Origin: a virus
Virus record (IMG/VR): IMGVR_UViG_3300045988_012220
Location: 1-64,000 of that record
DNA length: 64,000 bases
Reading direction: 5' to 3' (one strand)
This document shows, one piece after another, positions 26,144 through 64,000 of this stretch. Each line of letters opens with the position of its first letter. Position 1 is the first letter of the stretch. The translations under genes were made by a program, and so were the position numbers. Under the pieces are notes generated by a model that was given only the letters and a program-made list of their open reading frames with translations, was not told where the DNA came from and did not search any database.

Positions 26144-26575
26144 ATGGAAGAAGAGAAGATGATAGATCAGACACAGTTGGCAGAGGACTTAAGCTCAAAG
26201 ATAAAGTATGAGTTTAGGTAGATGTTCTTAGTAAAGCCGCTTGAGTCTGTTAAAGTTAAAAAGAAGATCTCCGAACCTGTGGCTAAGGATACTAAGCCAA
26301 AGAAGGATAAGGATGGGATCGAGGCAGTTGATTATGATGAAGTAAAGACAGAGATTAAGGAAGTTGATTCAGATTTCTCTAGAGCTGTTGTACTTAAGTT
26401 GCCATATGAGTACACACACCCATATGTTGATGAAAAGATTCAGCAGATGCCTATCAAGGTTGGTGATATTGTTATATACAGATCTGCTAGAGGAGCTATG
26501 TATTTCGACTTACTTAAAGATTCTCAACTTGTATCTCTTTACGATATTGTAGCAACAGAGACAGTAGAGAAGTGA
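26144..26575 (+). CDS. hypothetical protein (1 in-frame TAG at 26219)
   Basis: The ATG at 26144 is in frame with track ORF 26222..26575 across one TAG: MEEEKMIDQTQLAEDLSSKIKYEFR[TAG]MFLVKPLE... Confidence 0.65.
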
Positions 26576-26805
26576 TGAATATAGATAAAGTTTGTAAATA
26601 GATCGGACAGAAATTAAATGAAGATCCAGAACTAGTAAAGCAAATAGTAATGCATTAGTTCTAGTTTGTAGTTGATGTTATGAAAGACACAGATGACACT
26701 AGAGATGTGTTATTAAACAAACTATTTAGATTCAAGCTTAAGAATAGATTTAAAGACAATAAGAATAAACCATTAAGTCCATATGAAGAAGATAATAAAC
26801 ATTGA
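26575..26805 (+). CDS. hypothetical protein (3 in-frame TAG)
   Basis: Own translation: MNIDKVCK[TAG]IGQKLNEDPELVKQIVMH[TAG]F[TAG]FVVDVMKDTDDTRDVLLNKLFRFKLKNRF... TGATG start overlap, TGA stop at 26803. Confidence 0.6.
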
Positions 26806-27151
26806 TCGCAAGCCTATTATAGTTGACACAGAGACTGCTTTTGTAACATCGATAGATAGATCCACAAGAGGCATTGATGATGTATACGTTGTTCCAGAAG
26901 ACGCTCACATTGAATGGAGATCAAGAATGTTTCCAGATAAAACCATTGAAGCAGATGTAAACAAAGATGACATTCTTGTTACATTCTACGACAAAGATCT
27001 CGGTACAGACTTTGTGATAATCAAGTCTAATGATTGGTTGAAAGCTCTTAATAATGCAGCAGATGCTGATCAAAAGAGAAAGGAAGAGTGGGCAGCTAAA
27101 CAGAGAGAAAACAAATCTGAAGATTTAGTTTGTGGAGACGCTTGTTGCTAA
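26783..27151 (+). CDS. hypothetical protein
   Basis: ORF track, 122 aa. Confidence 0.7.
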   Translation: MKKIINIDRKPIIVDTETAFVTSIDRSTRGIDDVYVVPEDAHIEWRSRMFPDKTIEADVNKDDILVTFYDKDLGTDFVIIKSNDWLKALNNAADADQKRKEEWAAKQRENKSEDLVCGDACC

Positions 27152-27170
27152 TCATGTTAATATTTAAGTT

Positions 27171-27494
27171 ATGAAGAAAGTTGTTAAAAAGACAGTTAAG
27201 GTAGTAAAGCCAAAGTACACAATTTCTATGATCGATGTAGCTAATGTAAGTGATATTACAGCATACTTTATTGGCCAGAAGATTTTAAATGGCATGAAGC
27301 TCACTGATTCAGATATTAGTACAATCGTATCAATTGTTACAGATATTGTACTTGAGGATCTTATGCCAGAGGATTGTTCGGCTATCGTAAATGACGGCGG
27401 TGTATATAGAAAGTGTACAGCCGTTAGAGTTGAGAACAAGGTTAAGAAGCCTTGGTATAAGAGAGTATGGAATTGGATTACTCGTACTAAGTAA
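27171..27494 (+). CDS. hypothetical protein
   Basis: ORF track, 107 aa. Confidence 0.7.
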   Translation: MKKVVKKTVKVVKPKYTISMIDVANVSDITAYFIGQKILNGMKLTDSDISTIVSIVTDIVLEDLMPEDCSAIVNDGGVYRKCTAVRVENKVKKPWYKRVWNWITRTK

Positions 27495-27504
27495 TCACCT
27501 TTAG

Positions 27505-27578
27505 AGTCTATTAGTCAAACGGTAAAGACAGCCCGATATAAAGGGAATAGTTAGCAGGTTCGACTCCTGCATAGACTC
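27505..27578 (+). tRNA. tRNA-like gene with canonical acceptor and T arm but a 3-bp anticodon stem and 8-nt loop GATATAAA (anticodon unresolved)
   Basis: AGTCTAT-TA-GTC(A)-..GG..-GAC-A-(G)CCC-GATATAAA-GGG(A)-..-GCAGG-TTCGACT-CCTGC-ATAGACT-C. Confidence 0.5.
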
Positions 27579-27728
27579 CAATTATTTTTCATTGTAAAAG
27601 TTTTTTAAATTTAATTTATCAAAGTGGCATCCATGTGTGTACACTATAAATAAAAGGCTACCATGGTAAGCTGACACATGGACCCAATACTGGTTCTGCG
27701 TAACTCCAGCTAAAGGTTACGTGCTTAT

Positions 27729-27799
27729 CGCGGGATGGTGAAATGGTATCACGTGTGGCTCATAACCATAGATTGCTAGTTCGACTCTAGCTCCCGCAA
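27729..27799 (+). tRNA. tRNA-Met (anticodon CAU) with C1.A72 mismatch
   Basis: CGCGGGA-TG-GTGA-AATGGTA-TCAC-G-TGTGG-CTCATAA-CCATA-GATT-GCTAG-TTCGACT-CTAGC-TCCCGCA-A. Initiator, elongator or Ile2 identity is not resolvable by eye. Confidence 0.85.
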
Positions 27800-27952
27800 C
27801 ACTGAGCTTCGATAGTGTGGTGTTCTACATATTTGGCCACCAGAAGCGAAATTGATATCAGAAAAATATGTCGGCTACAATGGTTTGAAGTGTAGCAATG
27901 TAGTTTTAGGCAGATAAAAAGCTCGATAGCCTAAGGTGAGCTTCTACAATAT

Positions 27953-28025
27953 TGCCCTATGGTGTACCGCCTGTGCACAACTGTCCCTAAAACAGTAGGT
28001 CTCCGATGGACACGGAGTGGGGCTA
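27953..28025 (+). tRNA. amber suppressor tRNA (anticodon CUA), non-canonical D and T loops
   Basis: TGCCCTA-TG-GTGT-ACCGCCTGT-GCAC-A-ACTGT-CCCTAAA-ACAGT-AGGT-CTCCG-ATGGACA-CGGAG-TGGGGCT-A. Perfect 5-bp anticodon stem with CTA at 27987-27989. C33 replaces U33. The D loop lacks GG and the T loop lacks TTC. Confidence 0.75.
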
Positions 28026-28069
28026 CTAATAAATACGTAGGTTAGAGGTGCGTATTAAATATATTCTAT

Positions 28070-28477
28070 ATGAAAACTAAAATATGCACTAAATGCGGTA
28101 TAGAAAAACCGCTTGATCAGTTTGTGAAGAATAGTAGCAAACCTGATGGCCTATCTCCCCAATGCAAGGAGTGTAAACATAAATATTATGAAGAGTATTA
28201 TAAGAAACATAAGAAAGAAATATATAAAAAGCATAAAGAGCGTAAGAATTTTTTAACACAGTATATGAGACAATTAAAATCAGAAGGCTGTATTATATGC
28301 GGAGAAAAAGATCAAGCGTGCTTGGACTTTCATCATCTTCATGATAAATCTTTTAACATAGGTAATCAATGTAGAGACAGAGGTGTCAACTCTATAAAGA
28401 AAGAAGTTGATAAATGTGTTGTATTGTGCGCGAATTGCCACAGAAAACTTCATTTTTACAATTTTACAATTGATTAG
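28070..28477 (+). CDS. HNH endonuclease
   Basis: ORF track, 135 aa. CTKCG...CKEC zinc knuckle, DFHHLHDKSFN...VVLCANCHRKLH HNH core. Confidence 0.85.
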   Translation: MKTKICTKCGIEKPLDQFVKNSSKPDGLSPQCKECKHKYYEEYYKKHKKEIYKKHKERKNFLTQYMRQLKSEGCIICGEKDQACLDFHHLHDKSFNIGNQCRDRGVNSIKKEVDKCVVLCANCHRKLHFYNFTID

Positions 28478-28497
28478 CTAAAAGATTATGTTTAGTC

Positions 28498-28522
28498 TGG
28501 GTTCGAATCCTAGTGGGGTAAC
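28498..28522 (+). other. orphan canonical T arm plus acceptor 3-prime strand (duplicate of the suppressor tRNA 3-prime half)
   Basis: CTGGG-TTCGAAT-CCTAG-TGGGGTA-A. The acceptor strand pairs with the suppressor 5-prime strand TGCCCTA (7 bp, 2 G.U). Lies 20 nt after the HNH stop. Confidence 0.5.
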
Positions 28523-28547
28523 AATAACAAACAATATTATAAATACT

Positions 28548-29093
28548 ATGGAGTTAAAATTTAAGAGACTTGAGGACGAAGCGGTCCTCCCTATTCGTAG
28601 CACAGAAGGTGCTGCAGGAATTGATTTGACATGCATTAAGATTGATACAGCTCTTAATGAAGCAAATCAGCTAATGTTGGTTTACCATACAGGATTGGCA
28701 GTTGAGATTCCTGCCGGATATGTTGGTTTACTTATACCACGCTCTAGTATTTGGAAGAAATCATTATGGCTTACTGATAATGTTGGAGTGATTGACGCTG
28801 ATTATAGAGGAGAGATTATAGCTATAATGAAAGCCACAACAGATGTGGTTCCTGCTATTTATAAGCAGGGCGAGCGCTTCTGTCAGTTGGTCATAGTTCC
28901 GGTGCCAGAATACGAGGTTACAGAAGTGTCTGAGCTTTCTGATACAAAACGAGGCGAGAATGGTTTTGGTTCAACTGGTACCGATAATAAGGAAGTTAGC
29001 GCAGCTGCGGGAACTGAGGCACAGGCTAGCGAACAGCCACAGTCCGTACCAGAGCAAGCGGCGGCACAAGATGGTGCTGAGGTAGGTGAGTGA
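28548..29093 (+). CDS. dut: dUTP diphosphatase (dUTPase) with Ala/Gln/Glu-rich C-terminal tail
   Basis: MELKFKRL...AAGIDL...PRSS...GVIDADYRGEI...RFCQLVI...RGENGFGSTG are the classic trimeric dUTPase motifs. Start set at the ATG at 28548, in frame with track ORF 28488..29093. Confidence 0.9.
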   Translation: MELKFKRLEDEAVLPIRSTEGAAGIDLTCIKIDTALNEANQLMLVYHTGLAVEIPAGYVGLLIPRSSIWKKSLWLTDNVGVIDADYRGEIIAIMKATTDVVPAIYKQGERFCQLVIVPVPEYEVTEVSELSDTKRGENGFGSTGTDNKEVSAAAGTEAQASEQPQSVPEQAAAQDGAEVGE

Positions 29094-29116
29094 CAAGCTT
29101 GACGATCCTACATAAA

Positions 29117-29144
29117 GGGGATTACCGAAAGGTAGTTCCCTTTT
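29117..29144 (+). terminator. rho-independent terminator
   Basis: GGGGATTACC-GAAA-GGTAGTTCCC followed by TTTT. Confidence 0.7.
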
Positions 29145-29179
29145 ACTGTTTATATATAAACAATATAGTATTAAATAAT

Positions 29180-31048
29180 ATGAATTTTAAGAAACAACCA
29201 TTAAAAGGTGTAGAAATACATGGCGCTCCACAAGTTGGTACGCGTACAGTAAATATCTTAATGGGCGAACACGCAAACGAATTTGTCCGTGGTGATATTA
29301 TGGATGCTAATGCAGTATTGCAGGCATTTGATGAGCTTAAGGGTAATGTTGATACAGATCACGATACTCTTGAAGAGCTTGTTAATGAAATCCATAAAAA
29401 TGCTAATAACATTAGCAATAATAGCACATAGATACAAAAAGTTGATGCAGCATCAAAGGCTAGAGACGAAAAGGAGAAAAACGATAGAACTGAAGCTGAC
29501 AACGCTCTCGGTCATAGAATTGATTAGGAGGCAGCTGCTCGTAAAGCAGCAGATGCAGCAGAGTTATCTAGAGCAACATAGGAAGAGGCTAGACTTGACG
29601 CAGCAATTAAAGCTGAGGCTAATACTAGAAAGCTTAACGATGATACTATTACAAGTGCGTTAAATGCAGAGATTGCCCGTGCAAAGGCTGCTGAGAAAGA
29701 TAACAGTAACTCAATCACAGCTGAGGCTGCTACAAGAAAGTCAGAAGATGATGCTATTAAGGGTCTTCTTCAGAACGAAGTTACTAGAGCTACAACCGCA
29801 GAAGCAACGCTTCAGAGTAATATAGATAGAGAAGCTGAAGAAAGAAAGGCAAGCGATAGCACCATAACAACTAACCTTGACAATGAAATAGCAAGGGCAA
29901 AGGCTGCCGAAAGAGACAACAATAACTCGATTACAGCAGAAGCCGCTACAAGAAAATCTGAGGATGATGCTATTAAGAATTCACTTCATAATGAGGTAAC
30001 TAGAGCCACTGCTGCAGAGGCAACCCTTTAGGGAAATATAGATAGAGAGGCTACAGAAAGAAAGAATAGTGATAAAACCATTACAACTAATCTGAATAAT
30101 GAAATAGCAAGAGCTAAAGCTGCTGAAAAAGATAACAAAGACAGAATTGATGTACTTGATGGAGATTCTAACACGGAAGGATCTTATAGAAAAGCTATTA
30201 AAGATCTTATCAACGGTGCCCCAGAAGCATATGATACCCTTAAAGAAATTGCTGACAAGCTTGAAGAAAATGATGATCTTAATCAGGCGATTAATGAAGC
30301 TATTGCCACAAAAGCATCTAAGGAAGAACTTAAAGCAGAGTCTGACAGAGCTAAAGGAGCAGAAGCTGATAATGCTGCTGCAATAACGGCAGAGAAGACT
30401 AGAGCTGAACAGGCAGAAAGTGATATCACTTCAAACCTCAACAAAGAGATAGATAGAGCTAAGAAGGCAGAGCAGGCTAACACCGCAGCTATTACAAGTG
30501 AGGTAACAAGGGCAACCGCTAAAGAGGAAGAGTTGGCTAATTCTATTACTGCAGAATCAAATAGAGCAAAGGCTGCTGAAGCTGATAATGCTACCGCAAT
30601 AACAGCCGAAAAAAACAGAGCTACATAGGCGGAGAGCGATATTGTCTCAAACCTTAATAAAGAGATAGATAGGGCAAAGAAGGCGGAACAGGCTAACTCT
30701 ACTGCTATAACAAGCGAGGTAACCAGAGCTACAGCTAAAGAGGAAGAACTGTCTAATTCTATTACCGCTGAAGCTAATACGGCTAGAGCTGCAGAAAAGG
30801 CAAACACAGATAAGATTAATACAGAAATTCAGGATAGAAAGAATGCCGATGCAACTCTTAATAGCGCAATTAATAAGGAGATAACAGATAGAACTGCTGC
30901 TATTTCTAATACAACAACAACTCTGAATAATAGTATTAATGAGGTTAGTACAAATCTTACAAACCTCACAACTACCGTAAACAACATTAGCGCAACTGTA
31001 TCGAATATTACAGCAATTACTACAGATTATATTAACGAATTAAGCTAA
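29180..31048 (+). CDS. tail fibre / coiled-coil repeat protein, 622 aa, at least 5 in-frame TAG
   Basis: Own reconstruction from the ATG at 29180 to the TAA at 31046. Contains two pairs of 72-aa (216-nt) repeats (..ITAEAATRKSEDDAIK..EVTRAT.AEATLQ.NIDREA.. and ..AITAEK.RA.QAESDI.SNLNKEIDRAKKAEQAN..). Confidence 0.8.
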
Positions 31049-31054
31049 TAAGAT

Positions 31055-34796: not shown

Positions 34797-37577
34797 ATGA
34801 CTGAATTACTATCATAGAATGATTAGGTTATCGAGAAGAAACCAAATCCAATCGAAGAGCTTAATACAACGATGGCTTAGTATTATTCTGTATTACATTC
34901 TAAGATTTATAATCACGAGAGTAATACTGATATACACGTAACTTCAGATGATAAAAACACCTGGAATAATAAAGCCAATTAGTCTGATTTAGAATCTGTT
35001 AAAGAATATGCTGATAGTTTAAAGTAGTCTTTAGATAAAGTTAAGCCAGATATAATTAAGGAAGTCGAGACTATGATAGATAATAGTAAAGACATTAATT
35101 TATCTGACTACGCCACAAAGGTTTATGTAGACGCTTAGATTGATGCGCTTAATATAAGTGATGACATTGCTACAAAAACATGGGTGTCAAATAACTTTGT
35201 AAACTCTACAAATTATCAAAGATTTGATTCTACAAAGTATTATACAAAAGATGAAATTGATAATAAAATTGCAGGAGCAAATGTAGATAACTATCAGATA
35301 ACGGAATTTAGTTTGGCTAATAACTATCTTAACCTTACATAGAACAACGGTATATCAACACAGGTAAAACTGTCTGATGTATCTGGTGGAGCAATAACTA
35401 GCGATAATTTGGATAGAAAGCTATAGGACTATTTAAAGATATCTGCTATAGGAAACATTACGTTTACTAGAGGAGGAAGAATAGTTACGACATGGAATCC
35501 TGCTGCAGAAAATGCCACCGTGGAACTTTCTGGAGGAAGTGGATCAGATTCTTAGAGTGGAGGATATTATAAACCATACTTTAAGAATTATCCGTCAGAT
35601 GACAGCTTACCTACATCACAATTACCTGTAGTTGGATAGGATCCAGTAAATGCAGGATGGAGCTCTGTTAACGTAAACCCAGAACAAGGATACTTTACAT
35701 GGGAGATATGGGTATACATTAAAACCGGTGGTGGCTTTGGTGATATCATTGGTCCAGTTTGTATTTCTGGAAAAGACGGAGACAATGGCTCAGATGCTAC
35801 TGGAAAAGAATATATATATCAGCTAAATAATAATCAACCTACAAAGCCAACAATAAAACCAGCGTGGGGCGATGTTCCAGCTGGGTGGACTGATAATCCT
35901 ACAGGTATAGATTCTACTCATCGTGCAGAATGGATGATGTATAGAACATAGGACCCAGATGGAGTTATAAGTGATTGGCTTCCAGCTAAGGGCCCTGTAA
36001 TTTGGGCTCATTGGGGTAAAGATGGAACAGATGGTGATGGTGTGCAATATATATTCTGTGCTTTAAAACCTGGTGAAACAACAGCTGTATTTACAGGCGT
36101 AAATGATCCTACATCGTGGACAAATGATTCTGGCTTTTAGAATGGAAAAGCTGGAGAATACATTAAACCAGGATCTAGATGGACAGATAACCCAATAGAT
36201 ATTAAAACAGCAGTTGGTTATGGTTAGGGATCAAGCTAGTATGTAAGCATAAGAAGATATAGAGGATCTACAGGAAGTGCTGAAGATAATGACGGAAAGT
36301 GGCTGACATATAGCGAGCCTAGCTTGTGGACATACATGGCAAAGGATGGAGAAAGCTCCTCCCAGACATTAAAAGGATCGCCTTTAAGAAATAGAGGTGT
36401 ATGGCAGACTGGTGTACAATATTTTGATGGTACAACCTAGTCTGATGGAGGATTGTTTTATTAGGACTTTGTATCATACACTCATTCTGTAGTAGCTGAT
36501 GGAGCATCTAAGAATGTTACAGATTTCTACGTTTGCAAAAAACAGTGTGCAAGTATTGTCCCTACAAATACTGATTATTGGGATAAGCTTAGTGATATGG
36601 GTCCAATATACACTGACGTCCTTGTCGCTATGAAAGCATACATAAAAGAGCTTACAGCAGAAGAAGTTATAATCACAGATAACGAGAACATCGTAGCTGG
36701 TATGACTTCTGGCAATTCTGACAAAGTTTCATCTCAGGGCAATGTGAGAATATGGGCCGGCACAAATGATAAAAATGCTAGCAATATAGCTGAAGCTCCA
36801 TTTACTGTTACAGATAAAGGTGTATTAACATGTAGAGGAAACTATGGGAATATTATATTAAAAGACGGTACGATTTATTTCATAGTCGGCGGAGTAGAAT
36901 ATAAGTTAGGTATAACTAATGGCAAGCCAGATTGGATTAATAGTGCTGGAGCTGATTCAGTTGAACAATGGTATACTAAGGTTGAAACAGAGCACAACGT
37001 TTCATTTAGCGCTATTGATTCTTTTAGCATTAAAGACAACATTTATTATACAAGTGGTACAATGTCAGATATGGTAAATGGTACATATTATAAACGCGCA
37101 TCAAAAATAACGTGTTTGTACAATATTAGCGAGGGTGTTGTATTTACATTTAAAGACACATTTGGAATAGATATATATATCAAAGCAACATTTTCTAATG
37201 GTATTAAAGCAGTAGAAGGTGCAGTTGCTATCAGTGGATATGCTACTACAACGTCTACACCTACTTAGGACATTCCTGGAAAAATAAATATAGATACAAC
37301 TAGCAAATAGTGGTGTTCTATAGAGAAAGAAAGCAAGGATAGTTTGCCAAGTATGTATTATACAAAGGATACTCCTGTAGGTAAATTACACGAAGCTAGT
37401 TATCGTTCAGTTGATGATAGAAATATTACATATGGAAGTGGTACAGAAGATGGTATATATGTAATAAAGCCAGCGCCAAAAGAAACTGTAAGCACAGATA
37501 GAAAAATATCAATATTTGTCGACGAGTCTTCTGAGTAGAATGTATTTAAACCAACAGTAACAACAGTATCATTATAA
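34797..37577 (+). CDS. large tail fibre / receptor-binding-type protein, 926 aa, at least 19 in-frame TAG
   Basis: Single frame from the ATG at 34797 through track ORFs 36597.. and 37344.. to the TAA at 37575. Repeated GKDG.DG...W.DNP segments are typical of phage fibres. Confidence 0.8.
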
Positions 37578-38088: not shown

Positions 38089-40152
38089 ATGATAGACTTT
38101 AATTAGAAGCTCCATGATACTGATAAATTCAGATAGGCGGCTATCTTCTTTCAGCAACATGGATGTTATACCTTAGCTCCTAGAGGTACTACTGATTATA
38201 ATAAATATTGGGAGCAAGAGACAGATAGATGCCTTAACGGTTATACAGCTCCAGATGGAGAGGGTATAACTGGATACAACTACTTCTATCTAAATTATAG
38301 TCCAATCATGCGACTTAAGGAAGAAGAGTATACTGATAGAGAGGGTAACCTTAGAAAGAGAAGATAGCGTATACTTGAATTCCCTAGTTTTTGGGACTAT
38401 GATTACTATTATTTTTGCGCTATAGAACAAGCAGAGTTAGAAGGTAAACATATGGCTGTGCTTAAGTGTAGACAGAGAGGATACTCATTTAAGGGAGGAT
38501 CGATGCTAGTTAGAAACTATATGCTTATACCAGGCTCGAAGAACTTTGCTATAGCATCAGAGTAGAAATTCCTTATAGGTGATGGTTTGTTAACTAAAGC
38601 CTGGCAAATAATGGACTTCCTTGATAAACATACAGCGTGGGCTAAACAAAGACTTGTGTCTACACGTATGGAAAGAACATCAGGTTATAAGATTACCGAT
38701 GAGTTCGGTAAGTAGACTGAGCAAGGATACTTATCTAGCATAACAGGTATAACACTTAAGAACGACCCAGAGCGTGTGCGTGGTACTCGTGCTAAACTTG
38801 TACTATGGGAGGAGGGAGGTAAATTCCCTAGTCTTCTTGATGCATGGCGTATAGAACAACCTTCAGTAGAAACCGACGATGGTAAAGCGTTCGGATTGAT
38901 GATAGTTTTTGGAACTGGAGGTACCGAGGGATCGTCTTTCGAAGGATTGAAAGAATTGTTTTATAAACCTAAATCTTACAATGTTCTCAGCTTTCCTAAT
39001 ATATGGGATGAAGGTAGAGAGAGTACAGAATGCGGATTCTTTGTTCCAGCTTATTCAAACCTAGAATCATTCGATGATGATGGTAATTAGGTATATATGG
39101 ACAAGGATGGTAATAGCTACAAAGAGAAAGCTATAGAGAACCTTATAGATCAGAGGAATAAAGTAAAGGACGGTGGTGCTAGCTAGCAATCTATAGACCG
39201 TTTTATATCAGAGCGCCCTATAAAGCCAGCAGAGGCTGTATTGGAGCTTGGTAAGAACATATTCCCTAGAAAGTTATTGATGGACCAGCTAACAAGAATA
39301 AGGACCAATAAGAAGCTTCAAAGCATGAAGCATATAGTTGATCTAGAATGGGATGGGAATGGTCAGGTAAAGGCTACAGAAAAGCCTAGTGGGGATATAA
39401 CTAACTATCCTCTTAAGAAGGGCGATAAGCCTCATGGATCTGTAGTTATATGGGAGTACCCAGTAAAGGATCCGCCGCATGGTTTATATATAGGAGGATG
39501 TGACCCATATGACCACGATGATAGCTTCACAAACTCACTTGGTTCTACATTCATATTTAAGCGTGTGAGAGCTGGTGAAGCTTGGACAGATGTAATAGTA
39601 GCAGAATATTCTGGAAGACCAGATACAGCAGAAGAGTACTATGAGAATGTACGCAAGCTACTTACGTTCTACAATGCTAGATTATTATTTGAGAATGAAA
39701 GAAAAGGAATCTACCCTTACTTTACGAATAAACACTGCGATTACCTCCTGGCTGATTAGCCAGATAAAATCATATCTGAAGTCTTTAAAGACAGTAAAGT
39801 ACAAAGAAGAAAAGGATGTCACATGACCAAACAGATTAGGGCATATGGCGAAGGATTGATATTAGAGTGGCTATTAGATGAATTTGAAGAAGGTCACCCT
39901 AATGTAGAAAGAGTATACAGCGAACCTCTAATAGAAGAGCTTATAGAAAACGATGGTGTACGAAACGTAGACCGTGTTATAGCTTTATGTATGGTAATGA
40001 TATACAGAGAGGAGCTCTATTAGGTAAAGGTGTCGTCTGCAAAAGAACAAAACAAATAGGTTGAACTCTTCGAGATGCCGTTATTTAGCAAACAATGGTT
40101 TGAAGAAGATAGCAGCACAAGTGAAGACGGTATGCCGATATTCACATTTTAA
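38089..40152 (+). CDS. terL: terminase large subunit, 687 aa, 10 in-frame TAG
   Basis: One frame joins ATG 38089, track ORFs 38776.., 39241.. and 39823-region to the TAA at 40150. FWDYDYYYFCAIEQAELEGKHMAVLKCRQRGYSFKGG, RGTRAKLVLWEEGGKF and MIVFGTGGTEG resemble crAss-type TerL (from memory, not searched). Confidence 0.85.
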
Positions 40153-40155
40153 TAC

Positions 40156-42639
40156 ATGGAAGATAACTTATACAATTCAGCTTTCCCCAGACAAAAGCTC
40201 CCTCTTTCAAAGAAAGGAAAGAAGTGGCAAGAAGACTGCGTTAACTATATTATAGGTGAAGGTAACGTAACGTCTGGAGGAAATAGTACATCATATTACG
40301 GAGAGCTGTAGACCTATTATAACTTATATAACAGCATCTTCGACGAGAAGGATTTTAAATCAATTACAAACCCATTCAAGGTCGAGGATGGTTTTCCTGC
40401 TACTCCTCACGACTTTAATATCATTAGACCTAAGGTAGATTTGCTTATAGGTGAGGAGACAAAGAGACCTCTTAATTTCAGAGTCATCAGAACTTCATAG
40501 GAGGCTACATCAGAAATGCAGGAGAAAGAGAAGTAGATGATTCTACAATACATAGAAGCAGCTATCACAGCCAGAATGAGTCCAGAAGAGGCCCAATAGT
40601 TTCAGGAGTAGCTACAGTCTGGAGAGGTTATGCCACCAGAGTAGATAGCTAAGTATATGGACAAAGACTATAAAGATATTGTAGAGAATACAGCGTATCA
40701 TACGCTTACATATCTGAGAGAGAAACTTGATCTTGACAATGAGTTTATCAAAGGCTGGAAAGATGGATTGATCTCAGGTAGAGAAATTTATTATGTTGGC
40801 GTACTTAATGCAGAGCCATATGTTGAAAGAGTTAATCCTATATACTTCTCTTATGACAAGAGCCCAGACTTGGAGTTTGTTGAGGATGGCTCATGGTGCT
40901 GTAGAAAGATGCGTATGCCTATTACTGAAGTATACGATAGATACTACGATAAGCTTGAAGAGAAAGATCTTGACAAGCTTGAGGAAATGATTGGTTCTAC
41001 TCCTGGTAGAAATCTTGGAGATAGAAGCCCTGTTGATATGGGTATACAATTACGCATATACGATAACCCTATATTCGAAGGAGCCGGTAAGTCCCTTGTA
41101 AACGTATGGCATTGTTGCTGGAAGTCTTTCAAGAAGATCTTCTACGTAACTACTACAGACGATGCAGGATAGCCTCAGATTAACATAGTTGATGAAACGT
41201 ATCAGCCTGTTGGTAATGAGATTAGTGTAGAACCAGATTGGATTGTAGAGGTATGGGAAGGATATAGAGCTGGTAGTGACTTGTACTTTGGTATACAGCC
41301 TATTGAATACCAGCACGTAAGTATTGATAACCCTAATAGCTAGAAGCTTCCTTATTGTGGAGCTATTTATAGTAACACAAATAGTAAGCCTAGATCATTG
41401 GTTAGTATTCTTAAGCCATTACAGTACATGTACATTGTATTGTGGTATAGACTTGAGTTAGCTATTGCTAGAGACAAGGGCAAGGTTGTTAATATGGATA
41501 TTACATAGATTCCTAAGTCTATGAATATTAGCCCTGCTAAGTGGATGCATTACTTGTCTAGCGTTGGCGTTAACTTCATTAACCCATACGAAGAAGGCTG
41601 GAATATCCCAGGAAGAGAAGGTGGTAAGCCTGCATAGTTCAATCAGATAACAGCTTTGGATCTTACAATGTCTAACGTCATAGCTGAGTATATACAGCTT
41701 ATGGACAAGATAGAGGAACTTGCTGGTACAATCTCTGGTATCACAGCACAGCGTGAAGGAGCTGTAAGTTCATCAGAAATGGTAGGCAATGTAGAGAGAT
41801 CAGTTGTACAGAGCTCCCATATTACAGAGCCATTATTCTGGGTTCACAACCAGTGTAAGCGAAGAGTACTTAACATGCTCCTTAATACAGCTAAGGGTGC
41901 TTGGGAAGAGACTGGCAAAAAGAAGCTCCAGTACATCTTTGACAATGGAGAAAGAGCATTCTTGGACATTACTCCTAAGTTCTACTATGAGGATATGGAT
42001 GTCTTTGTAAGTGATACATCTAAAGATCTTGAGAACATATAGAAGCTTCAGCAGCTTATACAGCCAGCTATGCAGAATGGTGCTAGCTTACTTGAAGCAG
42101 CAGAGATTCTTACAAACGATAACTTTAACATCATTAAGCAGAAGCTTAAGGATATGTAGACTAGACAGGAGCAGATGCAGCAACAGCAGCAAGAGGCAGA
42201 GGCTCAGCAGCAACAGCAGTTGCAGCAGATGCAGAATGAAGCTAAATAGCAGGAGCTTATGTTACAGGAAGCTCAGATGGATCTTCAGAGATATCAGATT
42301 GATCAAGATAATCAGACAAAGATAGCTGTAGCATAGATTAATGCTTATCGTGGAACTGAAGATATGGATCAAAACGATAATGGAGTACCCGACGTTGCAG
42401 AGCTTGGCAAACAGGCTCTTGAGCAGCAAAAGATTAATCAGGAGGCTTATAATAAGCGTTATGAAGCTAAGTAGAAGCGTGAGATAGAAGATTAGAAGAT
42501 CTAGCTTGAGAAGGATAAAATGAAGCATGAGACAGAGCTGTAGTCTCAAAAAGATAAAGCTGCGATGGAAAGGGAATAGCTTAAAGCTAGAACCGCCATC
42601 CGCAATAAAACGAATGCGGAAGCTGCTAGAGGTAAGTGA
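40156..42639 (+). CDS. portal protein, 827 aa, 19 in-frame TAG
   Basis: One frame from the ATG at 40156 through track ORFs 40657.. and 41656.. to the TGA at 42637. Position after TerL, large size, Gln-rich C-terminal coiled coil. Confidence 0.8.
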
Positions 42640-47864: not shown

Positions 47865-48135
47865 TAACTTTATAGCTCCCTGTAGCAGTAATGTTACTTG
47901 AAAATCTATTTAATTTCTGGGAAGCCCAAACGTTTAAGTCGTGGGTAATCAGAAGCGAAGTCTCGAAAGAGAAACGTTCAACGACTATCCGAAAGGAGTA
48001 GGGTTCAAGCGAACCCGAAATGATAGACATCCTAATTGGGATGAAGATATAGTCTGATCTCATATGAAAGTATGAGGGCTTTTAATGATCGCAATAAAGC
48101 CAATCTGTAGTAGCGATACAGGTTAAACATAAATG
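47865..48135 (+). ncRNA. group I self-splicing intron (ORF-less, 271 nt) in the MCP gene
   Basis: Classic core elements: Q-like TAATCAGAAGC, R GTTCAACGACTA (47976-47987), S AAGATATAGTC (48044-48054), with GACTA/TAGTC forming P7. GNRA/GAAA hairpins. The 5-prime exon ends in T and the intron ends in G at 48135. Splicing keeps the frame (GEMG|IREFDRILKE). Confidence 0.75.
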
Positions 48136-48648
48136 ATTAGAGAGTTCGATCGTATTTTGAAGGAGAAGGCAGCTAGCTTTAACATGATTGATACACACTT
48201 CATTACAGGTTCTGGTCAGGACTTGAAGTTGGGTGGTCAGTTCACAACTTACACTATGACCAATGGTATTGAGTTGACAGTTAAGCGTTGCGCTATGTTT
48301 GATAACATGGAGATGTTCCGTCAGCTTCATCCATTGACAGGTAAGCCATTGATGTCTTACACATTCTTGTTCGTTGACCTCGGTCGTCGTGACGGTCAGG
48401 CTAACATCGTTAAGGTATGTCGTAAGGGTCGTGAGTTCGTACAGTGGTGCACTGGTGGTTCTGTATTGCCAAATGGTTATGCAAACAACATCAACACTAT
48501 GCGTTCTAACAGCCGTGATGGTTACCAGGTACACTTCCTTGGTGAAGAGGGCATCATGTTGAGAAACCCATTGTCATGCGGTATCTTGTACTGTGATGCT
48601 GAAGACCAGGAGTCTATTGCAGTTGAGAACAGAGCAGCAGAGCTCTAA
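48136..48648 (+). CDS. major capsid protein, exon 2 (170 codons, no TAG)
   Basis: Track ORF 48133..48648. An in-frame TAA lies immediately upstream at 48130. Confidence 0.8.
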   Translation: MREFDRILKEKAASFNMIDTHFITGSGQDLKLGGQFTTYTMTNGIELTVKRCAMFDNMEMFRQLHPLTGKPLMSYTFLFVDLGRRDGQANIVKVCRKGREFVQWCTGGSVLPNGYANNINTMRSNSRDGYQVHFLGEEGIMLRNPLSCGILYCDAEDQESIAVENRAAEL

Positions 48649-51744: not shown

Positions 51745-52869
51745 ATGATTACATATGTAAATACCGTATTGGTATCAAATAATGGTGGTGATACACTCGC
51801 TACAAAGGAAGAGCTTGCAGGCAAGCAGAAGAAGGGTGATCTCAAAGAGTTGGTTGGTAAGCTCGTATTTATGAATTGCGACCCAGCTGCTCAGGATGGT
51901 TCAAACATTGAGGATATTTATGCAGTTGATGAGAACTGTGATAGATTTAAGATTGGCGTTGTAACTAGTGATAGTTTCCAGAAGGCTGATAAGATGGGTA
52001 ATGTAACATATATTCCTGTTGTTAAGTGGTCAAATATTATTAACGCAGCAGACATTAAGTCTATTACAAAGCTCGACTACAAGGACGATACAGAGGATAC
52101 AATCTCAATTGACTTCTCTACAATTCCTGCAGAGACTTTAGATATCCTTTCAGCAGGTGGTTGCCCTGTAGTACTTCGTCTTACTTTTAAGGATATGCCT
52201 ATGCGCTATCGTAAGTGGACTGAGTCTTATAGCTACGTAACAATGCCTGGTGATGGTATTCAGAAGATTATGCAGGGTCTTGTTAAGGATATTGTACGTG
52301 CTTCAAAGCGTCAGCGTGTATACGCAAAGATCGATGGTACTAAGCTCGTTCTTGAGGCAATGAAGTACGATGATGATGAGCAGGCTGTAACAGAGAATGT
52401 TTATGCAAAGGTTCGCTTTGATGCAAATGCTTATTGGATGAATCCACAGGCTCCAGGTTGGGCAGCTAATAACAAGTATGATCTTGGTGTTAAGTTTGTT
52501 AAGCAGGAAGGTGTAACTTATCCTGCATCAGCAAAGCTTGTACGTGATCGCGAGCGTTCAGCATTTGATTATCAGGGTGTACTTCATCGTTGCTGCTGGT
52601 ATGATCCACAGCCTAACATGGTTACAAATATTGACAACCATTACGGGGGTATTACTATCGAGTTCGAGAACCAGTATCATACAGCTGATGATCTCTGGCG
52701 TAGAACAAAGCAGACAGTAGAAATTTATGCTTCTGACAACGGCACAGAAATTGGTGCCGCAGAGATTGGCAATGGCCTCTTGGCTAAATTGGGCAAGATG
52801 GTTGCTAATCGTCAGAACATCGCTAACCCAGTTAGCAATTCAACTGCGTACGACGGTACAAAGTATTAA
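51745..52869 (+). CDS. abundant-type structural protein (374 aa, no TAG)
   Basis: ORF track. Followed by a strong terminator. Confidence 0.8.
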   Translation: MITYVNTVLVSNNGGDTLATKEELAGKQKKGDLKELVGKLVFMNCDPAAQDGSNIEDIYAVDENCDRFKIGVVTSDSFQKADKMGNVTYIPVVKWSNIINAADIKSITKLDYKDDTEDTISIDFSTIPAETLDILSAGGCPVVLRLTFKDMPMRYRKWTESYSYVTMPGDGIQKIMQGLVKDIVRASKRQRVYAKIDGTKLVLEAMKYDDDEQAVTENVYAKVRFDANAYWMNPQAPGWAANNKYDLGVKFVKQEGVTYPASAKLVRDRERSAFDYQGVLHRCCWYDPQPNMVTNIDNHYGGITIEFENQYHTADDLWRRTKQTVEIYASDNGTEIGAAEIGNGLLAKLGKMVANRQNIANPVSNSTAYDGTKY

Positions 52870-58784: not shown

Positions 58785-59435
58785 ATGAAGCAGCTAATTC
58801 AAACAATAAAGAAGAACTACAAGCTGCTGCTTAACGCTGTTTTAGGGCTTCTGATGGCCTTTTGTTTAGCGTCTGGTATATTCTACCACAACAAAGCTAA
58901 TAGGCTCTCAGAAGAGCTTAAAATGGCTAATAACAACATCGAAGCCTATTAGGATGCCTTATATGGTGCCTAGTAGGCTTCTGGTGTTTTAAGACTAGAT
59001 GCAAATAAGCTGTCAGAATATAATGATAAGCTTGTATAGTAGATAGACTCTATTAGGAAGATACAGAAAGTCAAAAAGAACGAAATATAGGTAGCAGCAA
59101 CTCAAAAGTAGATATTAAACGTTAATAAAAGTAATGGGGTAGGGGGTGATATTATAACAATTATTAAAGACTCTACTTATAAAGATAGTCTATAGTACAA
59201 CCCTCTAACTAAAGTATACTATACAATCGGTAAAGATAGTGTTAATATTAAGCTTGATGTATAGAATACATAGTACCTCTATATTTATAAGCATAGAGAA
59301 TATAAGAATAAAAAGAACTTCTTTAAGAGACTTATAACATTTGATTGGAAAAAGAAAGATGTATATAAATACAAGATACATAATACAAACGATTTACTTA
59401 AAGAAGATAGTATTAAAATAATAGAAGCGATATGA
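58785..59435 (+). CDS. N-terminally membrane-anchored coiled-coil protein (spanin/lysis-accessory candidate), 216 aa, many TAG
   Basis: Own translation: MKQLIQTIKKNYKLLLNAVLGLLMAFCLASGIFYH.. followed by a coiled coil. TGA at 59433. Confidence 0.55.
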
Positions 59436-60118
59436 ATTACTTTTCACTTAGAACATTAATAGATGATATTCTTCTTATTGTCCGCAATAACAACATAAGT
59501 GAAAGTGAGGATCTTTCAAGGGATTAGATAGCGTCTTGGATAATACAGTATAAGACTTATCTACAAAAGAAGAAAGAGGATCAAGATAAAGAAAACGACG
59601 AAGACGAACCAGATGATTCACTGTAGTCGACTGTTGGTCCTATTGAATTAATTGTAGATAAAACAGAAAAGAATATAGACTGTGAAGATTGTTGCTGTGA
59701 TATAATCAAGCGTACAAAAGATCAAATACATACAGTAAACAAGAGTACTGACGACATAGTTAGTGTATGTGATAAGAATGGTTGTGTTATACAGTATATG
59801 CATAAGCTTAGAAAGCATTATCATAACTTTAGAAGATACACTTATGCAGAACCTGTATGCTGGTTTGATGACGGTTATATTTATGTAGAAGGAGATGTTG
59901 ATTCAATAAACTCTGTATACATTACAGGATATATAGACGAATCTAAAACTGCTAATACAGAAGACGATATAACAATACCAGGTTGGATGATCCCTGACAT
60001 AAAGAAAGCTATACTTACAAATGAGCTTGCGTTTATGATTAAGAGACCTAGTGATGATAGTAATAATTCAACATTAGCTAGTGTAAAACCAAATGGTCCT
60101 CAAGATAAGGAAGAATAA
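59432..60118 (+). CDS. hypothetical structural protein, 228 aa, in-frame TAGs
   Basis: The ATG at 59432 (ATGA overlap) is in frame with track ORF 59798..60118. Confidence 0.65.
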
Positions 60119-60560
60119 AAAGAGTTATACGATCTCAGATATATATAGAGCGTATAATAAAATCAATGAGAACGTGCCATATTTGCGATATAAGCGCATA
60201 TTGGACGAGTTTAATAAAGTTGTAAAGGATGAGATTTTAGAGCGCTCACAGCTGTTTAAAATGCCTTATGGGCTTGGTAGTATATGTATAGTAAAATACA
60301 AGCCAAAGTCATATACACCTAAATCATTATCTGTAGATTACAAAACGTCTAGAGAAGAAGGTAAAAAGATATACCACTTAAACGAGCACTCTAATGGATA
60401 CAAATACAGATTATACTGGACAAAGATACCTAGAACGTTTCCAAAAAGATATATGTATCAGATACAGTTTGTAAGAGATAACAAAAGGCATCTAGCACAA
60501 CTTATATTCAATAAACAAGATTATATAAACATAAATGATATTCAAGTATACAAAATGTGA
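60093..60560 (+). CDS. hypothetical basic protein
   Basis: ORF track, 155 aa, no TAG. Confidence 0.65.
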   Translation: MVLKIRKNKKSYTISDIYRAYNKINENVPYLRYKRILDEFNKVVKDEILERSQLFKMPYGLGSICIVKYKPKSYTPKSLSVDYKTSREEGKKIYHLNEHSNGYKYRLYWTKIPRTFPKRYMYQIQFVRDNKRHLAQLIFNKQDYININDIQVYKM

Positions 60561-60579
60561 ATCTGTTATAGCCAAGATA

Positions 60580-61398
60580 ATGGCTGATGCAGATATGTCG
60601 GAAAAGAATATTCGGGTCACAGATATACGTGAATGGATATTCGAAGCTGTTGAAAAGATAGGTGCACCAGTATAGTATGTATAGAAGGAATCCGGAGATG
60701 ATTGTGTTCCTGTATTTGAGATACATGAAAATCAAATACCTATACCAGATGATCTAGAATCTCTTACATCTGTAGCGTACTCATTAGATGGTACGAATTG
60801 GATGTAGGCAAGAAAGGATGAAAGTTCGTTTAAGCTAAAAGCAAACGCTCATAAGAATCCTAGCTATGATCCACAATAGCCACTTAGATAGCCTTTGATA
60901 ACACATAGATCTTAGTTGCTAGGTATTAATGGTTCAACAGCTGTACTAAACGTATTAAACAACAAAAATATTAATGAGCCAACATATTGGATTAAACCTG
61001 GCTGGATAGTATTTAACAAAGATAAGGGCTTTGTAAAGCTTTCGTATAAAGCAATTGCTACCGACGAAAGAGGTTATCCTCTTATCCCTGATTTAGCCTC
61101 ATATCAAGAAGCAATATACTGGTATGTAATGATGAAGCTTAGTTTTCCTAAGTTCTTAAAAGGATAGCTTGGCGGTAAAGTAAGATTTAGCTAGAATACT
61201 TATTTTTACATACAGCAGCAATGGAACTTCTACAGAAATCAGGCATATGCAGAAGCAATGATGCCTAATGAAAGTGAGATGTCTTCAATAAAGAACGAAT
61301 GGACAAAGCTTATTCCAGATTGGGATTCTGATGACACGCTGTTTAATAACGTTGGAAAGAGATAGTTAAACTTTAATGATTACTGCTATGGCTACTGA
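60580..61398 (+). CDS. hypothetical structural protein, 272 aa, in-frame TAGs
   Basis: The ATG at 60580 is in frame with track ORF 60916..61167. TGA at 61396. Confidence 0.65.
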
Positions 61399-64000
61399 TA
61401 ATAATACATTCGTAAATAGCTTTGTGACAGGAATAGATAGTGATAGCTCTTTAGATAGAGTAAAAAACACTAGTTACCTAGAAGCTAAGAACATTAGAGT
61501 GTTATCCTTTGATTCCGCAAACCAACACGGTTCTATTAAACCTATAAACGGAATAAAGTAGGTTGGATCGATAAAGGATGAAAAGGTAGAGAGAATATTG
61601 GCTACAGGAGCAGTACGAGATAGAGGTGTAATTATATACATATCAGAGAAGAGAGGTAAACCAGAGTTCTGTATATCCTGCTTTGATAATAAAATTGGAC
61701 AAGATAGTGATACAGACAACTCTGTAAATGAGATATAGACTATATCTAACATATTTAGATCAGAGTTGATAGATTGGCCTACAGATAGATCTAAGTGGCC
61801 TAAGAATGTATCTATTACGTTTAAGTATGAAGGTGACGATAATATTAAATTATATGTTGCTACTGGATTTAACCCTATAATGGTGTTTAACATAGCTAAA
61901 TTGTATAGCTACAACAATACATCATTCAATACAGTTTAGTCTTATCCAAAGATTATATTTCAGAAGCCTAAGTTTGTTAAGTATGTAGATGGAACCCTTA
62001 AGACATCTTATGTAAGCTACTCGTACTAGATATACAGTAATCACGGAGTATCTACTGATATTTCCCCAGCTTGTTAGTCTATACCTGTTATTAATGTTCC
62101 TTCAGACAGAACTGATGTGTTAGGAATAAAAACAGATTAGTTTGACAAGAAAACAAACTGCGGTGTTTAGATTCTTATTAAGCCAGAGACTGATTATTCT
62201 TTTCTTAACAGAATAAAGATATATAGAATCTCAGTACAGATTAATGGTTAGTTACCAACTATTGAGGTTATATACGATTCTGCATACGAGCCAAATAGAA
62301 ATGGAGATTTCTTTGTAAACGATACTGGTCAGCAAGCTCTGGATACTATAACAATAGAAGAGTACAACAGTATGTCTGGAGTACATATTATTCCAAAGGT
62401 TATAGAAAGTAAGGATAACATATTGTTCGCTGCAAACATACAAGAAAGATCAACCTTTATAGATACGGAACTTTTTAAGAAGTGGGATGCCAGATCATTT
62501 AGAGCTAATGGACAAGGATAGATAATATTACAAAATACGTCCGGAAATCAAAAGGTAACATACAAATGGTCTGAGCTTAATGAATTATCTATAAGTAATG
62601 GGTACATAGAAAAGGATTCTTATAACCCATACAACGATGTAAACAAACAGTATTATCTTAGTGATTCGTACTGTATATATGACAAAGATAATTTCTACGG
62701 AGGAACAGGAGTAAATGTTTCCTGGAGATTTACGGTTACATATATTCCTATTGATACTTGTAGTACTACTGGATCTAATGAGATTGGAACAATGTGGAAT
62801 GTCCTTAAGGTTAAGAATACGCAGGATAGACCAATTCTTTATTTCATTAACAAGGATGGGCTTTAGAAAGCCGATATCGAGATATCTACAGAAGAGGGTA
62901 GAATTAATAACTCGTGGGTAACAAAGTCCCTTAAACGAAACGAATTGTACAGATATGGTATTATATTGTACGATTCTACTGGAAGTCCTAGTCCTGTTAA
63001 ATGGATAGCAGATATTCGTACACCAAACCTGTATGATAAGTATTTTAATACATTTATATCTCACTACAATAATATGTATGATCTTGCATCTATTCCACTT
63101 GGTATTGCATTCAATGTTAAAAATTTGCCAGAAGGATGTACAGGATATGAGATTGTAAGATGCTAGAGAAGAGAGTAGGATATAGCTTCAATAGCGCAGG
63201 GTGTTATTAGTAAGCCAATAGTTGGATATAGTACACCTGAATGCCATAGGCCAGATAGAACTACATACTTCCCTACAGGATTACTTACAACAGCAATGGT
63301 GGCCCAAGGATCAATATTTAAGTATTTTACAGAGAATTATAATCCTGCTAACGATGGTAAAAAAGTAGATGCGATCCAAGCTGCTGGTAAAGTATGTGCA
63401 TCAAATTTTGGTAATACATAGATATTCTAGTTTGTATCAGCTGAAACAACTTATTAGCCAGAGTCTGTAAAGGTGCTTACAAATAACAAAGATTTCAAGT
63501 TAGAGCCCCTTAGATATATTTTTGGTCAAAGCGGAAAGTTCTAGAAAGAAAAGCATATTGGAAACAAATATTTCATGAGCCCTGGTATTTCAAATACCAA
63601 TATATATACAAAGCCAGATTAGACTAATGATGGTAAATCCTATGAATGGAAATACTATACTAATAAGAGTGGTGGCGGATACACTGATTACCAATACAAG
63701 TCTTCTCCATACATTCTTAAGATGCTTACAGCACATTTGAAAACAATGTACTACAAAGCTGATGTATCAGATAAGATGTGGACATGTTTAAGCCCTGGTA
63801 AGATAGATGAGAATATTAAGTATTCTGGATCTGATATGAACAAAATAGATGATAAGGTTTTTGCTTACATAAAACTGTATGAACAGGGATGTTCGTTAAG
63901 AACAAGGGTATGCGGGACAACTGATCATCTTATTGATTACGGCCCAAGCTCAATGGACGAGCATATTGATAACAATACAAAACTTGCTGATATCGATGAT
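61376..64000 (+). CDS. very large virion/tail protein (partial, runs off the right edge), many in-frame TAG
   Basis: Track ORFs 61376.. and 62945.. share a frame. I read it continuously to position 64000 with only TAG interruptions. Confidence 0.75.

Follow-up and report, generated by a model that had tools for sequence, protein, structure and literature searches.

A TAG-to-glutamine code in the rightward arm of a Burzaovirus-like crAss-like phage, as predicted from sequence, and its putative HNH-remodelled suppressor tRNA gene

The virus record IMGVR_UViG_3300045988_012220, of which we analysed positions 1 to 64,000 (64,000 nucleotides, hereafter the window), raises a question: how can packaging, virion and lysis genes that are interrupted by the stop codon TAG be expressed, and what would read these codons? 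Our answer is that this is very probably a two-code phage, in which the rightward arm uses TAG for glutamine (Gln, Q), the leftward arm keeps the standard code, and TAG is read by a phage-encoded transfer RNA (tRNA) with the anticodon CUA.

By its sequence, the window represents about 64 kb from a crAss-like phage of roughly 100 kb (Crassvirales, Suoliviridae, Burzaovirus-like, delta group). It encodes the crAss-type capsid, the terminase large subunit (TerL), the portal and the tail ring proteins, and megablast of the region 38-46 kb returned ~91% nucleotide identity to the RefSeq Burzaovirus genomes cr124_1 (NC_055899) and cr7_1 (NC_055895), with a match spanning TerL, portal and their neighbours. 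In a whole-genome comparison the window was collinear with 23.3-87 kb of cr124_1. Minus-strand genes point leftward up to about 25.5 kb, plus-strand genes point rightward from about 25.7 kb onward, and the GC skew changes sign near 26 kb. Since the public collection contains one window protein in 397 blocks, many of which lie on ~100-kb contigs, and since positions 1-12009 are 100% identical to a Logan contig from run ERR414273, the phage is a common one in the human gut.

TAG as a sense codon in the rightward arm

The rightward arm (26144-64000, plus strand) holds virion, packaging and lysis genes. Under the standard code, open reading frames (ORFs) of at least 100 amino acids (aa) cover 52% of its plus strand, and this coverage rises to 95% when TAG is read as sense, compared with 54% and 60% when TGA or TAA is read as sense instead. 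For ORFs of at least 200 aa, the corresponding values are 15% (standard), 85% (TAG), 18% (TGA) and 22% (TAA). The two control codes fall far below the TAG-sense coverage, and the restoration of ORFs is therefore specific to TAG. The longest ORF of the block has 376 aa in the standard code, whereas the three longest TAG-sense ORFs reach 931, 877 and 828 aa. Read in this way, the arm contains 35 plus-strand genes with ~190 in-frame TAG codons among ~11,900 codons, equal to about one third of all Gln codons. In-frame TAA and TGA codons are absent from these genes, all of which terminate in TAA or TGA, and neighbouring genes meet at junctions of -1, -4 and +2/+3 nucleotides (nt) of the ATGA, TAATG and TGATG types, many of them 1- or 4-nt overlaps. 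Two ORF breaks in the block have causes other than TAG, namely an intron in the capsid gene (47865-48135) and an HNH insertion in a tRNA locus (28001-28496).

The initial annotation of this DNA had claimed that reading TAG as sense mends the standard-code fragments into genes that end only in TAA or TGA and are packed with operon-like start/stop overlaps, and the figures above bear this out. Its TAG counts proved exact, with 10 in the TerL gene (38089-40152, plus strand, 687 aa), 19 in the portal gene (40156-42639, plus strand, 827 aa, stop TGA) and 19 in the gene at 34797-37577 (plus strand, 926 aa). Its observation that TAG sits in Gln-rich runs was also reproduced, in the run CAG TAG TAG ATT GAT TAG at 42770-42787 and inside the Q tract at the portal C terminus. 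TerL matches phrog_6681 (E 5.6e-149, residues 24-661) and the portal matches phrog_6547 (E 2e-161, residues 6-794), and these matches extend over every TAG of the two genes; Pfam gave no match for either protein, and both were resolved by PHROGs. The large protein encoded at 34797-37577 has homologues in cr124_1 and cr115_1 and no family match in Pfam or PHROG, which leaves its earlier label as a fibre unsupported.

The fragmentation of the block under translation table 11 could also be explained by TAGs that are true stops in a decayed, defective or mis-assembled genome with broken genes. Against this explanation, the frames are interrupted by TAG alone and never by TAA or TGA, the TAG positions are kept in 13 relatives from independent samples, and in-frame homology runs through every TAG. 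The same sequence was moreover assembled independently, in the Logan contig that is 100% identical over 12 kb. We give this explanation practically no credence.

For the amino acid read at TAG, all plus-strand genes of the window were translated with TAG as X and compared by tblastn with five standard-code genomes (cr10_1, cr1_1, crAss001, phi14:2 and Fpv2). Two of these, cr10_1 and cr1_1 (Boorivirinae, ~54% portal identity), carry TerL, portal and major capsid protein (MCP) genes free of in-frame TAG, and their portal genes end in TAG, so that they use the standard code; in the region around the portal gene, cr124_1, cr7_1, cr130_1, cr4_1, cr115_1 and cr52_1 are recoded. The 181 aligned TAG cells from the five genomes contained Q 32 times, K 28, E 22, A 14, N 13 and R 12 times, and gaps 12 times. 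Opposite TAG in cr10_1 and cr1_1, Q was again the commonest residue, in 23 of 96 cells against a background of 3.9%, and canonical Q codons of the window meet Q in 27% of cells in the standard-code alignments. The initial annotation had proposed such alignments as a check on whether TAG falls inside proteins or at their termini and gaps. All 29 TAG codons of TerL and portal lie on internal aligned columns of the standard-code homologues, and with gaps in 12 of 181 cells and Q as the commonest residue, the outcome is the one that it had expected for a sense codon.

In a likelihood comparison with substitution profiles estimated from the same alignments, Gln was ahead of lysine (Lys) by 39 log-likelihood units and of glutamate (Glu) by 40.5, and the margin was 250 with the recoded relatives. 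At the codon level, 841 cells from 13 recoded relatives contained TAG 484 times, CAG 72 times and CAA 41 times, and neither TAA nor TGA; among 95%-identical strains, nearly all changes were from TAG to CAG or the reverse. That TAG stands for another amino acid, for example Lys or Glu, draws on how often TAG faces K (28) or E (22) in the standard-code homologues, and three distant relatives taken alone put Glu just 3 log units behind Gln. This is nevertheless very improbable given the overall lead of Gln and its much wider lead in recoded relatives, the exchange of TAG with CAG/CAA far more than with AAA/AAG or GAA/GAG in near relatives, the TAGs inside poly-Q tracts, and proteomics of other crAss-like phages, which gave Gln (PMC9523058). 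From these alignments, we conclude that TAG is a sense codon in the window, most probably for Gln, and that TAA and TGA remain terminators.

Extent of recoding and TAG load of individual genes

The leftward arm (1-24500, minus strand), which carries replication and transcription genes, a sigma factor and many small genes, is readable in the standard code. Its 41 ORFs stop at TAA (30), TGA (7) and TAG (4), and 21 public gene calls in this arm, with ~5,000 codons, contain 2 in-frame TAGs versus ~79 expected at the rate of the plus-strand arm. Judged by its sequence, the recoding is not confined to the plus strand or to the region from 26144 onward: it extends to the minus-strand gene 24549-25019, which encodes 156 aa with 5 in-frame TAGs and has full-length matches in cr124_1 gp45 (85%), in the sister contig L030 (93%) and in cr130_1 (43%). 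Past the right end of the window, 41 and 53 in-frame TAGs are present in the giant cr124_1 genes gp01 and gp02; another cr124_1 gene, 'gp09', was tried as a probe and discarded as a spurious antisense ORF.

Two stretches of the leftward arm drew our attention in their own right. In the gene at 10316-10804 (minus strand), which lies upstream of the sigma-factor gene, codon 139 is a TAG, and the 23-aa tail after it aligns with standard-code homologues (LP[FY] motif); the TAG is also found in cr124_1 gp63. It may be a sense codon, or a switch between a short and a long product, in an otherwise standard arm. The second stretch, 5200-7300 (~2.1 kb), has no minus-strand ORF of at least 50 aa in the standard code and only short TAG-rich ORFs when TAG is read as sense, and the syntenic region of cr124_1 (28218-30381) is likewise unannotated.

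Within the rightward arm, the claim of the initial annotation that the whole module is recoded was too broad. TAG is a sense codon in the block, but eight genes lack it, including the major capsid gene, the dUTPase gene (28548-29093, plus strand) and 51745-52869, and the TAG share of Gln codons ranges from 0 to 71% per gene. The highest shares were found in an Rz-like spanin candidate (58785-59435, plus strand; 10 TAGs, 71% of Gln codons; phrog_739, E 2.9e-5), a glucosaminidase-domain (lysozyme-type) protein (42642-43664, plus strand; 19 TAGs, 70%; PF01832, E 4.7e-9) and tail ring protein 1 (CrAss_Ring_1; 60535-61398, plus strand; 9 TAGs, 56%; PF24228, E 1.5e-103). For ~105-kb crAss-like phages, Borges et al. 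described preferential recoding of the genes for an amidase of the lysozyme type, a spanin and, 1.1 kb past the spanin gene, a tail tube protein (10.1101/2021.08.26.457843). By analogy, the glucosaminidase, spanin candidate and ring protein 1 of the window appear to correspond to these three genes. A muzzle-type large tail protein at 61376-64000 (plus strand), cut by the end of the window, has 17 TAGs within it; the sister-contig product of this gene has 1549 aa and carries PF25731 crAss_MUZ.

The TAG-free major capsid gene consists of exon 1 (46845-47864, plus strand) and exon 2 (48136-48648, plus strand), and between them lies a 271-nt group I intron that contains no ORF (47865-48135, plus strand; RF00028, 93 bits). 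When the junction was mapped against the cr124_1 capsid gene, U was the last nucleotide of the 5' exon and G that of the intron, and the protein after splicing was complete in Pfam (Crass_capsid positions 2-495 of 496, E 2e-207). The intron is absent from cr124_1 and cr7_1; introns in MCP genes of the delta group have been described (PMC7886860).

The putative suppressor tRNA locus

Neither ARAGORN nor Rfam (at the gathering threshold and at E<=1) found a canonical tRNA(CUA) in the window. They reported only four or five tRNA-like features, namely tRNA-Val(GAC), tRNA-Lys(UUU), a tRNA(CAU) and two low-scoring tRNA-like elements, none with a CUA anticodon. The strain's own 8.6-kb left flank (contig L016, 100% identical) contained no tRNA(CUA) either, and the right-hand flanks of six sister contigs, like the giant-gene and replication region of seven related IMG/VR contigs, were also without one. 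A single tRNA(CUA) is present in the whole genome of cr124_1, immediately upstream of the dUTPase gene, and the syntenic locus of the window has three parts in the order CUA cloverleaf unit, HNH gene and displaced canonical 3' half (27953-28522).

The first part is a 74-nt cloverleaf unit at 27953-28026 (plus strand; TGCCCTATGGTGTACCGCCTGTGCACAACTGTCCCTAAAACAGTAGGTCTCCGATGGACACGGAGTGGGGCTA), our candidate for a working amber suppressor. Its first 14 nt equal those of the cr124_1 tRNA(CUA), and its D loop, anticodon stem and T arm are new. The acceptor stem has a T1xT72 mismatch and the pair G2-C71, the anticodon arm reads ACTGT-CCCTAAA-ACAGT (CUA), and the T arm, CTCCG-ATGGACA-CGGAG, is non-canonical. 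The second part is a gene for an HNH homing endonuclease of 135 aa (28070-28477, plus strand; phrog_2255, E 1.4e-32), which is absent from cr124_1 and cr7_1. The third part, at 28497-28520 (plus strand; CTGGGTTCGAATCCTAGTGGGGTA), comprises a canonical T arm and acceptor 3' strand identical to the 3' half of the cr124_1 tRNA(CUA); to judge from the sequence, it would be either a relic or a second exon. An in silico join of 27953-28000 and 28497-28522 is accepted by ARAGORN as a tRNA(CUA), whereas the proximal 74-nt unit and the unspliced locus both go uncalled by the program, and Rfam gave no match at 27900-28560 even at E<=10. The cloverleaf folds have energies of -24.5 kcal/mol for the proximal unit and -22.5 kcal/mol for the spliced form.

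Ten alleles, taken from IMG/VR, ENA and Logan contigs, have the HNH arrangement. Among 12 IMG/VR contigs, six carry the HNH allele and six an HNH-free allele; the HNH type was also seen in four metagenome contigs, in L030 (ERR4088064) and in the window, and was not found in the GenBank phage records of the collection searched. ARAGORN called a tRNA(CUA) at 6 of 6 HNH-free loci and at 0 of 8 HNH-type loci. The endonuclease domain, together with presence/absence polymorphism at the same site, marks the insert as a putative homing-endonuclease cassette. The 'stop' of the HNH gene, TAG at 28475-28477, is CAG in alleles L012, L044 and L046, so the C terminus of the endonuclease may depend on the state of TAG suppression.

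On balance, and with modest confidence, we take the proximal 74-nt unit (27953-28026) to be the working suppressor. It is invariant in the ten alleles, all of which retain the CUA anticodon, whereas the HNH ORF next to it shows a difference of roughly 10%, as estimated by eye in the alignment. Compared with the cr124_1 tRNA, pairing is kept by double changes both in the anticodon stem (28:42, C-G vs G-C; 29:41, U-A vs A-U) and in the T stem (52:62, C-G vs G-C; 51:63, C-G vs G.U). The proximal T arm keeps G53-C61, U55, R57 and A58. With G18-C19 in place of GG in the D loop, and G56 in the T loop, which also has A54, the unit suggests to us a swapped 19:56 elbow pair. The T1xT72 mismatch with A73 is also present in the canonical tRNA(CUA) of cr130_1, and position 33, which is C in the window strain, is the usual U in alleles L047 and L048. 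As a self-contained tRNA, the unit would have the predicted 3' end ...GGAGTGGGGCTA(+CCA).

Alternatively, TAG could be read as Gln by a spliced tRNA, formed from exon 1 (27953-28000) and exon 2 (28497-28520) by removal of the 496-nt HNH-bearing intervening sequence, with the predicted junction ...ACAGTAGGT|CTGGGTTCGAATCC. The in silico product is a canonical tRNA(CUA) that ARAGORN accepts, and the distal half, with its canonical TTCGAAT T loop, is kept in all complete alleles examined (L048 ends before it). The distal positions 71/72 vary between TA, CG and TG and always pair with positions 1/2, including a C1...G72 double change in L042. Several features nevertheless make splicing unlikely. 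A group I intron in the insert was considered and rejected: there is no RF00028 or other Rfam match at 27900-28560 at E<=10, and the splice-site rules cannot be satisfied, as no placement of the junction gives both U(-1) and a terminal intron G. The flanks outside the HNH ORF, just 70 nt on the 5' side and 19 nt on the 3' side, are too short for a group I core. Bacterial tRNA introns sit in the anticodon loop, and this insertion lies at the border of variable loop and T stem. In addition, allele L041/L045 has a C56T change in the distal T loop, and the D loop, which has no GG, would be a better partner for the proximal T loop, with its G56, than for the distal T loop. An intron-less allele that shares this anticodon arm turned up neither in IMG/VR nor in the metagenome scan, and the insertion point is therefore a predicted one.

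A different doubt is whether the tRNA-like locus works at all. It could be a dead relic of HNH invasion, with TAG still read as Gln thanks to suppression that the host, a co-infecting phage or some undetected factor supplies. The locus is rejected by standard tools, C33, A54 and G56 are uncommon tRNA features, the literature leaves room for suppressors that are host-encoded or undetectable (PMC7886860), and a preprint describes an amber-recoded crAss-like genome without a CUA tRNA (10.64898/2026.08.21.746148). We regard this, too, as an unlikely state of affairs. The invariance of the 5' unit next to an HNH ORF that differs by ~10% (by eye), the perfect pairing of anticodon and T stems kept by compensatory double changes, and the retention of the CUA anticodon in every allele all argue against decay. 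The lineage is also abundant and assembles as ~100-kb genomes, and is therefore viable, and an amber suppressor of the host would harm the host's own TAG-terminated genes.

If the proximal unit, or another form of the locus, supplies the suppressor, the two codes could work together as follows. The leftward arm would be translatable by the host as it stands, whereas the rightward arm, with its packaging, capsid, tail and lysis genes and the giant virion genes beyond the window, would use TAG as a Gln codon. The amber suppressor tRNA gene would stand at the beginning of the rightward arm, immediately upstream of the dUTPase gene, and in this strain would have been remodelled by the HNH homing-endonuclease cassette. 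We infer that the host glutaminyl-tRNA synthetase (GlnRS) charges this tRNA with Gln. TAG-rich mRNAs would then be fully translated only after the suppressor has accumulated, in which case the recoding would act as a timing gate, with its strongest effect on the lysis genes and none on the capsid gene, which is very highly expressed.

Several points weigh against a two-code phage with its own suppressor. The basis for this particular strain is its nucleotide sequence, and ~24 kb of its genome, mostly giant genes to judge by relatives, were unseen. Neither ARAGORN nor the Rfam tRNA model recognises the candidate suppressor, which in this strain has C33 where U33 is near-universal in tRNA, a T loop without T54 and C56 and a D loop without GG. 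The TAG-containing genes 26144-26575, 26575-26805 and, on the minus strand, 24549-25019 do not fit a simple picture in which recoded genes lie downstream of the tRNA. Finally, about three quarters of the TAG columns in cr10_1 and cr1_1, at ~54% identity, are not Q, and the assignment to Gln is therefore statistical.

The candidate suppressor belongs to a tRNA array. An initiator-like tRNA(CAU) with a C1xA72 mismatch (27729-27800, plus strand) lies just after a conserved leader, in the slot that the tRNA(CUA) occupies in cr124_1. The leader is a conserved element of ~110 nt (27615-27728, plus strand); whichever tRNA comes first in the array, the leader stops exactly at the 5' end of that tRNA. 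Helices in the leader may be pseudoknotted (CUGG/CCAG and CGUAAC/GUUACG), Rfam gives no match to it, and differences between alleles in its 5' stem look compensatory. Farther upstream, at 27505-27578 (plus strand), is a tRNA-like element (Rfam tRNA, 37.9 bits) that is conserved in position and has good acceptor, D and T arms; as a decoder it was rejected for its degenerate anticodon arm, with a 3-bp stem and a loop of 8 nt in the window and cr124_1 and of 6 nt in L030. Sister strains have an extra tRNA between the tRNA(CAU) and the suppressor locus (L030 9387-9461; L047 7971-8045), which is absent from the window; it has an 8-nt anticodon loop, and ARAGORN gives 'anticodon tgaa'. In the recoded relative cr115_1 (TerL with 7 TAGs), ARAGORN found no tRNA(CUA) in 42 kb around the portal gene, and a GC-rich non-coding stretch of ~640 nt (L004 16729-17366) lies just upstream of TerL, where cr52_1 has its suppressor.

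Other RNA elements were found in the leftward arm. A permuted transfer-messenger RNA (tmRNA) is encoded at 11354-11780 (minus strand; RF04321, 57 bits; ARAGORN tag peptide DNVNNIVDYTCVA), with homologues annotated in cr124_1, cr115_1, cr10_1 and cr52_1. Such a phage-borne ribosome-rescue tmRNA may be relevant to the code switch in a stop-codon-recoding phage. The tRNA-Lys(UUU) at 14074-14147 (minus strand) lies where cr124_1 has tRNA-Met(CAU), and the tRNA-Val(GAC) at 1076-1150 occupies a site that differs from cr124_1. At 14695-14781 (minus strand) there is a tRNA-like fragment of 28.4 bits, just under the Rfam threshold, with a 3' end that is unpaired with the 5' acceptor strand but pairs with an internal GGCGGTA; it was likewise rejected as a decoder for its degenerate anticodon arm. 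A RAGATH-1 hammerhead ribozyme (19062-19140, minus strand; RF03152, 78 bits, full-length match) sits among small leftward genes.

Comparison with relatives and meaning for crAss-like phages

The window shares its gene order, divergent two-arm layout, tmRNA and tRNA-like element with cr124_1 and cr7_1. The in-frame TAGs of cr124_1 are likewise found in TerL (8) and portal (15) and not in the capsid gene (0), and the RefSeq coding sequences of both genomes already read through TAG. The differences lie in the capsid gene, which has no intron in cr124_1 and cr7_1 and has one in the window, and in the tRNAs: cr124_1 and cr7_1 have a canonical intact tRNA(CUA) upstream of the dUTPase gene, without an HNH gene and without a tRNA(CAU) there. 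One tRNA slot holds Met(CAU) in cr124_1 and Lys(UUU) in the window, and another holds the CUA suppressor in cr124_1 versus Met(CAU) plus the remodelled suppressor in the window.

That recoding is known in crAss-like phages, as the initial annotation had conceded, is well documented (PMC7886860, PMC9523058). Yutin et al. 2021 reported TAG-to-Gln recoding of late genes with suppressor tRNAs in crAss-like phages that belong to groups beta, delta and zeta (PMC7886860), Borges et al. interpreted recoding as a timing device for structural and lysis genes (10.1101/2021.08.26.457843), and Peters et al. showed TAG=Gln by metaproteomics in other, code-15 crAss-like phages (PMC9523058). The window resembles the phages of Borges et al. 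and Peters et al. in its recoded structural and lysis genes and standard replication genes, which fits the suppressor-tRNA model, and in its strongest TAG preference, which falls on the lysozyme-type enzyme, the spanin and a tail protein ~1.1 kb downstream. We see no difference in the recoding itself.

For the annotation of such genomes, gene calling with table 11 halves the coding density of the rightward arm and hides the TerL, portal, tail and lysis genes. The earlier statement that any standard annotation would be badly wrong therefore holds for table 11, but not for the RefSeq entries of cr124_1 and cr7_1 or for public gene calls on sister contigs, which read TAG as sense and give products that include proteins of 1549 aa and more than 5000 aa. 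The gene-calling problem has been solved and published, and close relatives and public gene calls handle it. Given that TAG recoding of the rightward arm is already known, the cryptic suppressor locus may be the only new part.

The nearest parallel to this locus is SegB of T4, where an endonuclease gene in a phage tRNA region also shows presence/absence polymorphism and is co-inherited with flanking tRNA sequence (PMC2330249). SegB, in contrast, is a GIY-YIG endonuclease encoded between intact tRNA genes (PMC2330249), whereas in the window a predicted HNH gene lies inside the suppressor tRNA gene, with the T arm substituted and the 3' half displaced. In recoded Bacteroidota gut phages, theta (minimal HDV-like) ribozymes adjoin suppressor, Met and Leu tRNAs (PMC10879173). 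The window has no Rfam match to the HDV-like family, and the sequence 3' of its tRNAs does not fit an HDV-like fold, as judged by eye only.

There is an open discrepancy between amber recoding and detectable suppressors (PMC7886860; 10.1101/2021.08.26.457843; 10.64898/2026.08.21.746148). Borges et al. detected suppressors in 40% of recoded genomes (10.1101/2021.08.26.457843), and in a 2026 preprint an amber-recoded crAss-like genome of ~101 kb is described that encodes Met, Lys and Ile tRNAs and two low-scoring 'pseudo' tRNAs but lacks a CUA tRNA (10.64898/2026.08.21.746148). The HNH-type locus is missed by ARAGORN in 8 of 8 loci tested and by Rfam in the window, and genomes of this kind would therefore be described as recoded phages without a suppressor. 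From the alleles at hand, we see about an even chance that around half of the sampled Burzaovirus-like genomes carry an HNH-remodelled, atypical (or, less likely, spliced) suppressor tRNA that standard tools miss. The window offers a specific, abundant and tractable example, with a candidate suppressor hidden by a mobile-element insertion and a non-canonical elbow. If this is true, it would supply a concrete cause for part of the gap, in which a tRNA(CUA) is detectable in only about 40% of TAG-recoded phage genomes, and it would mean that homing endonucleases drive the turnover of the code-switch tRNA itself.

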